NCBI GenBank assembly: GCA_947573965.1
Contig: CANPHV010000001.1
Location: forward strand, 1 to 57,715
Reading direction: 5' to 3'
DNA: 57,715 nucleotides
DNA from: an uncultured Clostridium sp.
GTDB taxonomy: Bacteria; Bacillota; Clostridia; TANB77; CAG-508
Under the pieces are notes generated by a model, which searched no databases, was not told where the DNA came from, and worked only from the letters and a program-made list of their open reading frames with translations. Below, piece after piece: positions 10,055 through 39,727 of this stretch. The stretch's first letter is position 1, and every line of letters starts with the position of its first letter. A program made the translations under genes and the position numbers.

Positions 10055-10133
10055 GTAGCAAAAACGACAAAGAATGTCATACGAGCATTGAAAGATAAAA
10101 AGGAATTAATAAACAAAAGAGAGGAAGATTTTA

Positions 10134-18709: not shown

Positions 18710-18752
18710 TTCAGAAAAGATATGTTATACTAATAACGAAGGGGAAATGAAA

Positions 18753-19448
18753 ATGTATAATATATTAGTAGTTGATGATGATAAAGAAATAGTTGGAGCC
18801 ATTGATATTTATTTGAAAAAAGAAGGCTATCATATCTTAAAAGCTTATAATGGAAAACAAGCTTTAGAAATCATAGCAGAAAACGAAATTCATCTTGTTT
18901 TATTAGATATCATGATGCCAGAAAAAGATGGAATGGAAACCTTAGAGGAACTTAGGAAAACCAAAAGCATACCTGTTATCTTGCTATCTGCTAAATCAGA
19001 AGACTATGACAAAATAGGAGGACTAAATTCAGGAGCCGATGACTATATCACAAAACCCTTTAATCCATTAGAACTAATTGCAAGAGTGAATTCAAATTTA
19101 AGAAGATATGTAAGCTTTGGAGCTTTAGACAATAAAGAAAATAGTAAAATTTATCAAACAGGAGAGCTTGTAATCAATGACGAAACCAAAAAAGTAACAG
19201 TAGATGGAAAAGAAGTTAAACTAACAGCGACCGAATATAATATTTTAAAATTTTTATTAGAAAACAAAGGAAAAGTATATTCCATTCCACAAATTTATGA
19301 AAATGTTTGGAAAGAAGAAGGCTTTGGAGCCGAAAATATAATAGCTGTGCATATAAGACATATTCGAGAAAAAATCGAAATTAATCCCAAAGAGCCAAGA
19401 TATTTAAAAGTTATATGGGGGGTAGGATATAAAATCGAAGCAGAGTAA
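18753..19448 (+). CDS. OmpR-family response regulator
   Basis: receiver domain (VVDDD, LLDIMMP, SAKS) and winged-helix output (LTATEYNILKFL, VWGVGYK); ATG 18753 has better RBS spacing than 18747. Confidence 0.9.
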   Translation: MYNILVVDDDKEIVGAIDIYLKKEGYHILKAYNGKQALEIIAENEIHLVLLDIMMPEKDGMETLEELRKTKSIPVILLSAKSEDYDKIGGLNSGADDYITKPFNPLELIARVNSNLRRYVSFGALDNKENSKIYQTGELVINDETKKVTVDGKEVKLTATEYNILKFLLENKGKVYSIPQIYENVWKEEGFGAENIIAVHIRHIREKIEINPKEPRYLKVIWGVGYKIEAE

Positions 19449-19449
19449 G

Positions 19450-19773
19450 GTGCATTGGGGACGTTTCTTTTTGCACATTTTTGTGCATTTGGGACATATC
19501 TCTGAGGATTAAATAATACATTTCTTAAAGAATTATAAATTATCAAAAATGCTCGTTCAAGCTGATTTTCAGAGAAATTCTAAATTCATAATAGGGTCCC
19601 TTTCCGCGTCAAGCGCGAACACTTTCCCTATTATGAATTAAGAATTTCTAACTTCAATCACTTTCAATGCGCTTTTTTCAAATTTATAATTCTTTAGGAA
19701 ATTGTCTAATTTTAAGAATAGAGATGTGTCCCAAATGCACAAAAATGTGCAAAAAGAAACGTCCCCAATGCAC
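19450..19773. mobile_element. 324-bp foldback (MITE-like) element between response regulator and kinase genes
   Basis: 53-bp terminal inverted repeats 19450-19502 and 19721-19773 (52/53 identical); further matched inverted blocks inward (ATTTCYTAAAGAATTATAAATT, AGAAATTCTWAATTCATAATAGGG); no credible ORF. Confidence 0.7.
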
Positions 19774-19790
19774 AGAGAGGAGAAAAGAAA

Positions 19791-21791
19791 ATGGAAAAGG
19801 TAAGAAATTCAAGTGTTTTAAAAGTTTTATGTTATATTATGATACCAATTTTAGTAGCAATTTTTGGATTAAGTGTATTCCATCTAGCATTTTTAAATGA
19901 ATTTGGAAATAAAAAAGAAGAGGTAAAATACACACAAACAGAGAATTTTGCTAATAATTATTTGTATTTCTTTTTAGGAAAAGTTTATTATTGTGAGCCA
20001 GAGGTAAGGGATAAAAAGTTTAGAAAATTGGAAAATCAAGAAGGAGACTTGTATTGCTATTTTGATGAAGGAAGGAATTATGATAGTAGCCAAGTTGGAA
20101 ATTATATTAAGTACGTTATTGTAGAAAAAGCAACAGGAGACTTATTTACGAATATTAAAAGTGGTGATTACCAACAAGTAATGAGTGATATGCAAAATCA
20201 GAAGATATACTGGAATTTTGTAGATGGAAAAGTGGATACTAATTTAAGTTATATTAATCAAGATAATATTAAATATAGTTATTGTTTTAATGATACACAA
20301 GAAAGTAACGAACATGATTATGATATTTATAGCTTTTTTGATGAAGAAGAAGCCACAATAGCAAGTAATTTTCTATTCGATAAAACGGCCTATGATTTTA
20401 TGTTGCAACATAGGGATTTACCAATTTATGGGTGTATTTTTAGTGTGATAGTATTGCTAATGATTGCTTTTTATCTATTTTGTGCAATTGGCTATAAAAA
20501 AGGAGAAAGTGGAATTTGTTTAAATACCTTAGACAAGATACCTTATGAAATTATTTGTGCAATATGTGTGAATGTAATAGCCATAGCAGCTACTATTCTA
20601 GTTAGTATGACAAATGATATTTTTTCTTCTTATTATATAGTAATTGGTTTTTTCTTAATTTTTTATATTGTTGGGTATATTGCCTGTGCTGTATGGGGGA
20701 TTACAACCATAAAGAGAATTAAGGCAAAAACTTTTTGGAAAAGTTTTTTAACCTACAAGATTATGAATTGGTTAGTAAACAAAAAGATGAAGAAATATGT
20801 CAAAGAGTTTAGTCAAAAAACGTCAAGTGGACAAAAAATCTTCTGGTATTATTGGGGATTTGTTGTAATTAGTGTTGTGCTAGCTTGCTTACTAGGTAGT
20901 GCAACTGCAATTATTGCACTAATTCTATTCTGGCTATGGGTTTTTTATCGAATTAAAAAATATACGAGACAACAAGATGAAATAAAAGAAGCATTAGAAA
21001 AAATATATCAAGGAAATAATGAGATATATTTAAATGATAGCGAATTACAAGGCGTGCAAAAGGAAATGGCAGTTTACATTAATGATATTGCAGGTGGATT
21101 TTCCAATGCAATTGAGGAGAGTTTGAAGTCAGAAAGGTTAAAGACAGAGTTGATTACCAATGTGTCACATGATATCAAAACACCATTAACTTCTATCATT
21201 AACTATGTAGATTTATTGAAAAAAGAAGAACTACAAGACGAAAGAATAAGAGAATATGTTGAAATTTTAGATATGAAGTCACAAAGATTAAAAAAGCTAA
21301 CAGAAGATTTAGTAGAAGCTTCAAAGGTATCTTCTGGAAATGTGAAACTTACCATCGAAGAAATTAATTTAAAAGAATTAATTAACCAAAGTATCGGGGA
21401 ATTCAAAGACCGCTTTGAAGAAAAAGGGCTACAAATTGAAAGTAATATGCCAGAAGGAATAAAAGTAAAAGCCGATAATCGCTATTTATATCGAGTAATA
21501 GAAAATCTTTTTAGTAATATTACCAAATATGCACTAGAGAATTCAAGGGTTTATATTGATATTACAAAAGAGAAAAACAAAATTAGTATCAGTATGAAAA
21601 ATATTTCAAAGGAGAAACTAAATATTAGTAGTGATGAATTAATGCAACGTTTTGTCAGAGGGGATAAAGCAAGATACACCGAAGGAAGTGGCTTGGGATT
21701 ATCCATAGCTAAAAGCTTGACAGAATTACAAGGAGGAACGTTTGACATTTATATTGATGGTGATTTATTTAAGGTAGTAATTGAGTGGTAA
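19791..21791 (+). CDS. sensor histidine kinase with large N-terminal sensor and multi-TM region
   Basis: H-box ITNVSHDIKTPLTSI, N-box ENLFSNITKYA, G-box GSGLGLSIA. Confidence 0.9.
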   Translation: MEKVRNSSVLKVLCYIMIPILVAIFGLSVFHLAFLNEFGNKKEEVKYTQTENFANNYLYFFLGKVYYCEPEVRDKKFRKLENQEGDLYCYFDEGRNYDSSQVGNYIKYVIVEKATGDLFTNIKSGDYQQVMSDMQNQKIYWNFVDGKVDTNLSYINQDNIKYSYCFNDTQESNEHDYDIYSFFDEEEATIASNFLFDKTAYDFMLQHRDLPIYGCIFSVIVLLMIAFYLFCAIGYKKGESGICLNTLDKIPYEIICAICVNVIAIAATILVSMTNDIFSSYYIVIGFFLIFYIVGYIACAVWGITTIKRIKAKTFWKSFLTYKIMNWLVNKKMKKYVKEFSQKTSSGQKIFWYYWGFVVISVVLACLLGSATAIIALILFWLWVFYRIKKYTRQQDEIKEALEKIYQGNNEIYLNDSELQGVQKEMAVYINDIAGGFSNAIEESLKSERLKTELITNVSHDIKTPLTSIINYVDLLKKEELQDERIREYVEILDMKSQRLKKLTEDLVEASKVSSGNVKLTIEEINLKELINQSIGEFKDRFEEKGLQIESNMPEGIKVKADNRYLYRVIENLFSNITKYALENSRVYIDITKEKNKISISMKNISKEKLNISSDELMQRFVRGDKARYTEGSGLGLSIAKSLTELQGGTFDIYIDGDLFKVVIEW

Positions 21792-32731: not shown

Positions 32732-34080
32732 ATGGAGCAAAAACAAACCAGAAAAAAGCATAGAATAAGTTATTACCTATCGCTAGCCATTTTATTGGTC
32801 ATATTATTTTTTGCTTACCAATACTACCAACAAAACAACTTCAATGACTTTGTAAGAAGCGAAACAAAGCTATATACCTCTCAATTTACAAGAGACAAAC
32901 AAATCAAATATGAAGGAAAAAGAAGTTACAAAATAGAAAATCCAGAATACAACGATGCTATGTTCTACAAAAAAGTAGCAGTTAAGAAAAATCAACCTTA
33001 TAAAGTAACCTGTATGGTAAAAACAAATAACATACAAGCAAAGGAAGAAACAGCAGGGGTAGGAGCTGGACTTGCTGTGGAAGGAACTACAGAGAGGTCA
33101 GTTTCTATAACTGGAACGCAGGATTGGCAAAAAATAGAATTAATATTTAACAGTAAAGATAGAGAAGAAATAAACATAGGAGCCAGATTAGGTGGAAACT
33201 TAGGTGAAGCGAAAGGCGAAGCTTGGTTCTCAGACTTTAGAATGGAAGAAGGCATTGCAGAACAAAACAACACATGGAAATTTGCTTGTTACATCTTTAA
33301 AAACACAGACGTAACCATCAATAATAAAAGAATTCAATTAGAGGTAACGCGGAAATGACGTAAAAGACATCAATAATACCATCAATTTATTTGAGACCTC
33401 TTGCAGTACCCTATCCAACAGAAAAATGATGGCAGAATGTGATATATACCAAATAGACACACCATTAACACAATTATCCTATGATGAAGAATTTGGTTAC
33501 TTTGTATCAGCAGAAAATGTAGAAAACTATATCAAAGATACAGTATCCACTCATAACTATGACCATATCTTTGTCATCGTAAGACTTCGGAGACGAAGAA
33601 CACCAAAACGATATCGAAGTAAATGACTGGATAGGTTTAGGTTCTATGGATTATTATGGAATAGGATTTTCCAATATCCGATTACCAAACGATTCAAGAA
33701 GTTATATTTACAAATATGATAGAAGAATTAATACCTTTCCAGAAGAAGTGTTTTTACATGAATTTCTACATTCTTTAGAAAGAAATGCAAAAGAATATGG
33801 TTATAGCAGACCAGAACTACACGATTATGAAAAATATGGTTATCAAAACGAAATCATGATAGGACAAAAGAAATGGTACACCGACTACATGAACAAAAAC
33901 ATAAACACCACAAGTGGGAAAATAGGATTACCACCAGAAATTTATAACTTAAAACCAGCCAAAAAAAGCAACTTTGAATATTCTTATACAATGAAAGAAG
34001 TCTTCAAAGAACCAGAAAATATCATAGAAGAAATGCGAGAATTGATGGAGAATATAGTTAGAAAATTCAAAAGGGATTAG
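32732..34080 (+). CDS. membrane-anchored protein with carbohydrate-binding-module-like domain and HExxH motif; needs two +1 events (CGG 33350-33352, 33588-33590)
   Basis: GAGGGGAGG RBS; TM helix YYLSLAILLVILFFAY; CBM-like segment YKVTCMVK..GTQDWQKIELIF..GEAWFSDFRME; C-terminal VFLHEFLHSLE; pieces are track ORFs 32681..33358, 33426..33626, 33646..34080. Confidence 0.7.
33350..33352 (+). other. in-frame CGG / +1 frame-break site
   Basis: ACG CGG AAA TGA; ACG (C) GGA AAT GAC continues into the frame of track ORF 33426. Confidence 0.75.
33588..33590 (+). other. in-frame CGG / +1 frame-break site
   Basis: CTT CGG AGA ...; CTT (C) GGA GAC GAA GAA continues into the frame of track ORF 33646. Confidence 0.75.
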
Positions 34081-34150
34081 GGATTAGGGGACGTTCCTTA
34101 AAATCCCTTATTCCCAGAAACAGGGATTTTAAGGAACGTCCCCTAATCCC
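34080..34150. repeat. perfect 28-bp inverted repeat (GGGAC-core hairpin pair) starting at the stop codon of the HExxH gene
   Basis: arm 34080-34107 GGGATTAGGGGACGTTCCTTAAAATCCC is the exact reverse complement of arm 34123-34150; 15-nt spacer. Confidence 0.9.
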
Positions 34151-34187
34151 TGCTAATCTCTATTGTAGAAAAGGTAGAAGTTAAAAA

Positions 34188-39545: not shown

Positions 39546-39630
39546 AATTTAATAAAAAAATAAAAAAAATTTCAAATTCTACAAATTTAGCAAAAAAATA
39601 GTGTATAATAGAAATGAAGTGGTCATTTTT

Positions 39631-39695
39631 GGGTCATTCTGGGACAGGCACAACGTGACCATTATGGTCACGTTGTGCCTGTCCCAGAATGACCC
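39631..39695. repeat. perfect 65-bp palindrome (GGGAC-core family) in the era upstream region
   Basis: 32-nt arm GGGTCATTCTGGGACAGGCACAACGTGACCAT, a central T, then the exact reverse complement; a TATAAT box lies at 39604-39609. Confidence 0.9.
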
Positions 39696-39727
39696 ATCCC
39701 AGAATGAACTCAAAAAGGAGAAAAAGT

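Follow-up and report, generated by a model that had tools for sequence, protein, structure and literature searches.

The 324-bp foldback that separates a response regulator (RR) gene from its histidine kinase (HK) gene in this uncultured Clostridium sp. is, with a probability of about 0.8, a non-autonomous REPIN/BIME-like mobile element of a superfamily of GGGAC-loop hairpins, with RAYT/TIRYT-type Y1 transposases as its partners, and a passenger at the operon where it was found. The element consists of two inverted family-A REP-like hairpin modules enclosing a second palindromic repeat. According to the mechanism proposed here, recognition of a module would require its folding into a hairpin as single-stranded DNA, and the whole doublet would be cut out or copied, and then inserted, by a RAYT that acts in trans. 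At the RR-HK operon the element would be a tolerated passenger. If co-transcribed, it would form a stem of about 160 bp, probably cut by RNase III, and this stem could shield the upstream RR message and leave the kinase ribosome binding site (RBS) free, lowering HK relative to RR. The relevant features of the window (the whole stretch of 57,715 nt that was analysed) are the following:

18747 to 19448, plus strand: OmpR-family response regulator gene (Response_reg and Trans_reg_C), whose stop TAA (19446-19448) ends 1 nt before the element.
19450 to 19773, no strand assigned: the whole foldback element, in which two family-A REP modules form a REPIN-like doublet round an interior palindrome; delimited from its fold and from seven genome copies.
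19450 to 19501, plus strand: left family-A REP module, GTGCA[TTGGGGACGTTTCTTTT]TGCAC-ATTTTT-GTGCA-TTTGGGACATATCT, defined from 16 paired-end and about 12 solo copies, its fold as single-stranded DNA and the RAYT flanks in relatives.
19502 to 19721, no strand assigned: interior, which belongs to another family of palindromic repeats, spread across the genus, with its core at about 19573-19654 and the apex CGCG-TCAAG-CGCG.
19722 to 19773, minus strand: right family-A REP module, an inverted version of the left one (53/54 identical).
19776 to 19783, plus strand: Shine-Dalgarno region of the kinase gene, AGAGGAGA, which begins 3 nt past the element and lies outside the hairpin.
19791 to 21791, plus strand: intact histidine kinase gene (HisKA, HATPase_c) of 666 aa, with its ATG at 19791.

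The preliminary description of this DNA had proposed that a near-complete foldback separates the RR stop from the RBS of HK, and this was borne out, the RBS being GAGGAG (about 19777-19782). An inverted-repeat search delimited the arms at 19450-19567 and 19656-19773, together with inner blocks of 30 nt (87%) and 24 nt (96%), and the outer 54 nt agree with the reverse complement of the opposite end at 53 positions (98.1%). The left module is laid out as a hairpin with a conserved GGGGAC loop, followed by a partial second unit. Folded as RNA, the 324-bp element yields a single long hairpin with a minimum free energy (MFE) of -169.6 kcal/mol, compared with -62.8 +/- 5.1 for shuffled sequences (z = -21; 0 of 100 shuffles as good). 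The element also lacks coding capacity, as had been claimed, in that no ORF of at least 40 aa is entirely contained in 19450-19773. An Rfam scan of the element region gave no match, just sub-threshold miRNA-like noise.

The terminus of 53 bp highlighted in the preliminary description is multi-copy. In the MAG (G000; 1.41 Mb in 108 contigs, 31% G+C, 93% complete) there are seven full-length copies with 85-98% identity (contigs C1, C28, C23, C8, C16, C14 and C86), one internal-deletion form of 201 bp (C35:2119-2319) and about 12 solo end modules of 50 bp. All eight insertions sit between co-directional genes, at junctions that include ftsW-murG, aspS and the gene next to it, and the region upstream of ftsK (names read from the translated flanks). 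The upstream stop codon lies 0-5 nt from one element end, and in seven of the eight cases an RBS is found 1-11 nt beyond the other, the copy on C23 being without one. The internal orientation relative to transcription is alike in 7/8 copies, a weak bias (two-sided binomial p ~0.07). Besides the form on C35, internal-deletion derivatives were detected at C47:2778-2815 and C39:8499-8531, the former retaining GTTCAATGGGGACGTTTCTTTTTGCACATTGAAC, that is, the left hairpin fused to the final 7 nt of the right end; from the derivatives on these three contigs it appears that such foldbacks decay frequently.

The element had been called MITE-like, a label that stands insofar as it is non-autonomous, multi-copy and recently gained, and that fails for a MITE in the usual sense, the termini being REP-like and target-site duplications absent. 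A classical MITE, i.e. an internally deleted DDE insertion sequence (IS) with the same terminal inverted repeats (TIRs), moved by cut-and-paste and generating a target-site duplication, would explain the long and almost perfect terminal inverted repeats, the small size, the absence of an ORF and the multiple copies, and with a MAG in 108 contigs the parental IS could be unassembled. However, inspection of both flanks for direct repeats evidenced no target-site duplication at any of the eight insertions, every family-A terminus in the MAG is accounted for, and no two of them are paired at an IS-like spacing. The autonomous transposase partner that had been envisaged was not found either: as judged from the spacing of the family-A termini, no DDE-transposase IS in the MAG shares the termini of the element, and sibling modules bracket Y1 genes of the RAYT/TIRYT type. 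Modules built in the same way surround Y1/RAYT genes in relatives and, in the form of sibling families, in the MAG itself, and the combination of co-varying stems with a conserved loop speaks for the recognition of hairpins, not of TIRs. Altogether, a classical MITE is considered highly improbable. In a search for a TnpB/Cas12f-like partner one sub-threshold match only was obtained, in a frame of 719 aa. An attC/integron cassette was also considered, given the place of the element between a stop codon and an RBS, and discarded, as the ends misfit the RYYYAAC/GTTRRRY order and the flanking genes are those of housekeeping operons.

The preliminary description had pointed to GGGGAC and GGGAC motifs shared with other repeats of the window, an observation that extends to the whole genome: GGGGACG occurs 103 times in the MAG vs about 13 expected from base composition, and at least 45 GGGAC...GTCCC palindromic pairs are distributed in at least seven families, which have the loop core in common and differ in their stems. 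The end module of family A, GTGCA-[ATGGGGACGTTTCYTTT]-TGCAC-ATTTTT-GTGCA-TTTGGGACAYATCT, is a hairpin with a co-varying stem of 5-7 bp and the conserved loop ..GGGGACGTTTCYTTT. The loop common to all families can be written as W-R-GGGAC-R-K..CYTTT and is closed by a family-specific stem of 5-7 bp, namely GTGCA/TGCAC in family A, GTCG/CGAC in B, GGATT/AATCC in C, TGCCA/TGGCA in D, GTCAC/GTGAC in E and GACAA.. /..TTGTC in F and G. Once the families are set in register, the changes in the inner stem pairs prove compensatory (C-G or G-C at the fifth pair; G-C, C-G or A-T at the sixth); this covariation was read straight from the sequences, and the MAFFT alignment of the modules had family A one column out of register. 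As single-stranded DNA the end module folds via its GTGCA/TGCAC-type stem. A loop that is conserved on a stem that co-varies points to recognition of the folded single strand. No GTAG tag is present at the module ends, the conserved GGGGAC(G/A) being located within the loop. Families E, G and H read GGGGACAG, in agreement with GGGG[AT][CG]A[CG], and families A-D read GGGGACGT or GGGGACGG (GGGGACG(T/G)), one mismatch from it.

The MAG contains about 28 modules of family A and 26 of family B. Solo family-A modules (e.g., C37:1631-1684, C9:22743-22792 and C68:4960-5014) have GTGCAAAAGGGAC in place of GTGCATTTGGGAC, and as single-stranded DNA these favour an alternative 11-bp hairpin, CCTTTTGCAC-ATTTTT-GTGCAAAAGG (-12.6 kcal/mol), which is not preferred by the modules at the ends of full-length elements. 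Two other doublets were observed in the window, one of 73 bp from family C (34079-34151; GGGATT..AATCCC stems) that overlaps the stop TAG of the upstream gene, and one of 67 bp from family E (39630-39696) located 7 nt ahead of the next start.

A profile search of the MAG with PF01797 detected four intact Y1 genes, which encode proteins of 253-272 aa, and one IS200-like fragment. Each of the intact genes is bracketed by inverted modules of a different family: family B for the gene at C31:12219-12998, family E for that on C14, family G for that on C25 and family D for that on C74. The proteins score 40-52 bits with Pfam Y1_Tnp (PF01797), and the best NCBIfam model is NF047646 (REP-associated tyrosine transposase) with 58-69 bits, below its equivalog cut-off of 80 bits; the IS200 model gives 17-21 bits. 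In an alignment of 15 such proteins H60, H62, Y119, N123 and P124, which make up the HUH and Y...NP motifs, are invariant. The sole PDB match of a profile of these transposases is E. coli TnpA-REP (4ER8; E = 5.6e-6), with the HUH and Y...NP motifs aligned, and a single-sequence PDB search with the RAYT gave no match. All four proteins carry a C-terminal tail of about 120 aa, which in one of them produces weak, sub-threshold HTH_7/HTH_23 matches (E = 0.003-0.006). The IS200-like fragment is the N-terminal part of an IS200-type TnpA (C71:2-115), located at a contig end beside a tRNA gene; no other classical IS200-like Y1 sequence was seen in the MAG.

The genomic context of these genes was compared across the genus. 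Group-1 RAYT genes lie directly upstream of radA in five genomes (G000, G006, G007, G010 and G021), with closely similar upstream sequence, and group-2 RAYT genes lie upstream of gap in three. There is one RAYT gene per repeat family, single-copy and, as judged by synteny, vertically inherited. Across the five genomes the modules that bracket the group-1 gene share the architecture and loop of family A and have species-specific stems (GTCG/CGAC, GTCC/GGAC and GTGAA/TTCAC); in G006, G007, G010 and G021 they are A-like. In the MAG, the flanks of the group-1 gene (C31) correspond to family B, whose loop differs from that of family A by two or three bases, and a B/A hybrid module was found at C20:2176. 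At the group-1 locus of the five species the right REP module abuts the start codon of radA (..GTCCCCAATACGACAA-ATG; about 12100-12130 on C31 in G000) and no Shine-Dalgarno sequence lies between them.

Based on the near-identical loops of families A and B and on the hybrid module, we infer that the family-A element is most likely mobilised in trans by the group-1 RAYT encoded on C31. Alternatively, a RAYT flanked by family-A modules may be missing from the MAG. None of the RAYT genes detected in this MAG, which is 93% complete, has exact family-A flanks, and mobilisation of family A by the family-B RAYT is proposed here from the similarity of the modules.

The interior of the element has a distribution of its own. 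Its core (about 19573-19654) recurs inside a family-D doublet (C85:1296-1377) and inside a family-E doublet (C30:7604-7685), and a third copy is located at C75:7189-7266; as single-stranded DNA, the interior folds with z = -9.3. Within the genus, the wider interior family is present in 36 of 200 genomes (70-88% identity). Some of the copies in relatives stand alone and have copy-specific palindromic outer arms, and others are nested in GGGAC doublets of several families; copies in relatives were seen, for example, in G100 (C7), G107 (C19) and G153 (C31). This pattern suggests either insertion into hairpin apexes or the outward growth of palindromes. Symmetric nesting would be most economically explained by insertion into the single-stranded apex of another hairpin, and the 324-bp element is a layered composite that was multiplied later as one unit.

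Outward growth is also the basis of an explanation without mobility, in which the palindrome arose in place by replication template-switching, as an inverted duplication round a small hairpin. The stand-alone interior copies with their copy-specific outer arms look as if they were growing outward, and internal-deletion derivatives are common, both of which are in line with such an origin. Yet the seven copies at unrelated loci have the same 324-bp sequence and the same ends, with 85-98% identity, and therefore contradict in-place growth for the whole element. Template-switching may contribute to the building of the layers; as the source of the element itself it is the least probable of the explanations examined.

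The RR-HK junction provides evidence on how the element comes and goes. In other species of the genus the orthologous junction is often a plain spacer of 10-37 nt (TAA-GAGGAGGAAAAGAAGA-ATG in G120), from which it follows that the element is an insertion. Several other species have different GGGAC palindromes at this place, with lengths of 305 nt (G059), 261 nt (G121), 150 nt (G014), 133 nt (G098) and 124 nt (G001). The ftsW-murG junction likewise shows, across the genus, empty sites mixed with family-diverse occupants, some of them nested. Both spacers have thus been colonised recurrently by different families of GGGAC palindromes in different species and are empty in many.

Within the species, ten metagenome contigs that encode an identical RR protein were compared. 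Two of them carry the element (342/342 and 341/342 nt across the full stop-to-start interval), and the other eight have a 32-nt spacer, TAA-ACGTCCCAATGGCAC-AGAGAGGAGAAAAGAAA-ATG, without it. The spacer AGAGAGGAGAAAAGAAA-ATG is common to both alleles, and the 15 extra nt of the short one (ACGTCCCAATGGCAC) are a remnant of the right tip of a family-A module, with two 1-nt indels relative to the present tip. In the short alleles gene callers lengthen HK by eight codons, starting from an ATG within this 15-nt remnant. Haplotype groups are about 1-1.5% divergent in their flanks, and two of them include the filled allele. The short allele is most readily interpreted as what a deletion left of an earlier occupant; given that it keeps a 15-nt tip with two 1-nt indels and does not represent a pristine empty site, the order of gain and loss cannot be fixed. 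On this comparison of alleles the element is dispensable, was recently gained or lost and turns over within the species. Its mobility is indicated indirectly, by near-identical copies at unrelated loci and by its presence or absence among conspecific contigs. In agreement with the mobility put forward in the preliminary description, the element is neither single-copy nor conserved at this junction, its presence varying among relatives, and the polymorphism within the species argues against any required role.

This polymorphism bears on another explanation, according to which the foldback is a dedicated intercistronic RNA structure (an RNase III site, an mRNA stabiliser or a translational uncoupler), selected for setting the RR:HK ratio and a repeat only secondarily. 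The position of the element exactly between the stop codon and a free RBS, the similar orientation of 7/8 copies relative to transcription, and a very stable hairpin in a genome that encodes RNase III (rnc) are consistent with such a role. The REP elements of E. coli are also known to stabilise upstream cistrons. Against it, 8/10 conspecific contigs with the identical RR protein are devoid of the element, as is the junction of most other species, and the same element is present in unrelated housekeeping operons (ftsW-murG, aspS, ftsK). In addition, the RNA folding energies of the copies, compared for a strand that gains stability from G-U pairs as a mark of selection on the RNA, showed small and inconsistent differences between strands, with no consistent strand asymmetry, the orientation bias is weak, and Rfam contains no match. 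A dedicated RNA structure is therefore held to be unlikely. A consensus scan in and around the element found promoter-like sites to be no commoner than in shuffled sequences, and no intrinsic-terminator-like site. With the mobile REPIN-like element as the preferred reading, RNase III processing of the transcript or uncoupling of the kinase is plausible, and such an effect on the RNA, which is predicted from folding, would likely be a by-product and not a function under selection.

The placement of GGGAC palindromes in the genome follows a pattern. Of 41 outermost palindromes, 31 are in tandem spacers, 7 in convergent and none in divergent ones, although divergent spacers represent about 20% of the intergenic length. 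In 15 of 24 tandem cases the first paired base lies no more than 5 nt from the upstream stop, vs 10.6 expected under uniform placement with the RBS protected (P ~0.014), and abutment to the stop persists where about 90-120 nt of free spacer lie beyond (C1:34079, C29:10986 and C74:5775). A similar location pattern has been reported for REPs in general (PMC3733652). It could be speculated that RAYTs insert repeats into exposed single-stranded DNA, such as hairpin apexes and sites just 3' of stop codons, that nested foldbacks are in this way built in layers, and that the host co-opts them as intercistronic mRNA modules which tune product ratios. This extended scenario is regarded as unlikely; if it were true, the recurrent occupation of the RR-HK and ftsW-murG junctions would reflect targeting or selection, not chance. 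As a separate observation at the second of these loci, the 3' part of ftsW in the MAG (C16, about 10080-10110) reads ..TTTAGTTAC-C-GGAGGAACAGCC.., the zero-frame translation breaks there, and the conserved FSY-GGTA of ftsW is obtained only when the C of CGG is skipped.

Among the systems described so far, the closest is that of the TIRtrons/TIRYT, RAYT-like genes that have GGGG[AT][CG]A[CG] (GGGGWSAS) inverted repeats on both sides and are accompanied by moderately abundant repeat families (Di Nocera, De Gregorio & Rocco, 2013; PMC3733652). TnpA-Y1 subclass 2.1, which probably corresponds to the TIRYTs, takes in 291 of the 292 sequences of Bertels RAYT group 1; its members have a C-terminal HTH-like extension (Bac_DnaA_C, HTH_23 or HTH_28), and no REP-like secondary structures were found beside the genes (Quentin et al.; PMC6006769). 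RAYT group 1 was also reported in Clostridia, with flanking 16-mers at low frequency only (Bertels et al.). The system described here resembles the TIRYTs in its Y1/HUH proteins, which are longer than the RAYT of E. coli and have a C-terminal extension, in the low copy number of the genes, in their bracketing by inverted repeats with a motif equal or close to GGGG[AT][CG]A[CG] (fitted here by families E, G and H) and in dispersed repeats that are moderately abundant and often dimeric. It differs from TIRYT/subclass 2.1 in that its GGGGAC is presented by a hairpin loop on a co-varying stem, and from the TIRYTs in the deviation of families A-D by one position from the published consensus, in the coexistence of four or five paralogous systems in a 1.4-Mb genome and in doublets that reach 324 bp and have a second repeat family nested in them.

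With the REPIN-RAYT systems of Pseudomonas and enterobacteria (RAYT groups 2 and 3; Bertels & Rainey, 2011; PMC3116915), the present one shares the arrangement of two inverted REP units in a long hairpin, the many extragenic copies, the single-copy and vertically inherited RAYT with the same REP flanks and the occurrence of several RAYT/REPIN pairs per genome. Unlike those systems (PMC3116915), it lacks a GTAG tag and is conserved in the loop instead of the 5' foot; its two units are set apart by an unusually long spacer of 220 bp, which is a repeat of another family, its RAYT falls in a different subgroup and the copies number tens, not hundreds. As in the REP/BIME elements of E. coli and their TnpA-REP (4ER8), the repeats are placed after stop codons, between co-directional or convergent genes, whereas the similarity to 4ER8 is distant, being detected at the profile level, and both the sequence and the architecture of the REP differ.

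Foldback repeats within operons that give long hairpins in the transcript, as predicted here from sequence, also recall the Correia (NEMIS) repeats of Neisseria and the ERIC repeats of enterobacteria, which are MITE-like, are co-transcribed with genes and are cut by RNase III. Correia and ERIC are bounded by TIRs, duplicate their target (TA for Correia) and have no RAYT, and their RNA processing has been shown experimentally. Judged by these comparisons, the system appears to fit the TIRYT/subclass 2.1 class and is neither a GTAG-type REP nor a classical MITE.

The conspicuous structure at the RR-HK junction would thus be explained without a new mechanism, as a REP/RAYT repeat of the TIRYT type in an uncultured, small-genome lineage of gut Clostridia. 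The placement of GGGGAC in a hairpin loop, on a stem that co-varies between families and species, offers a concrete recognition model for the transposases of subclass 2.1, which have been described in the literature as lacking REP-like structures. For the annotation of such genomes, these elements should not be mistaken for regulatory RNAs or assembly artefacts. Finally, the presence/absence polymorphism at the RR-HK junction constitutes a natural comparison for the effect that an intercistronic hairpin of 160 bp may exert on operon expression.
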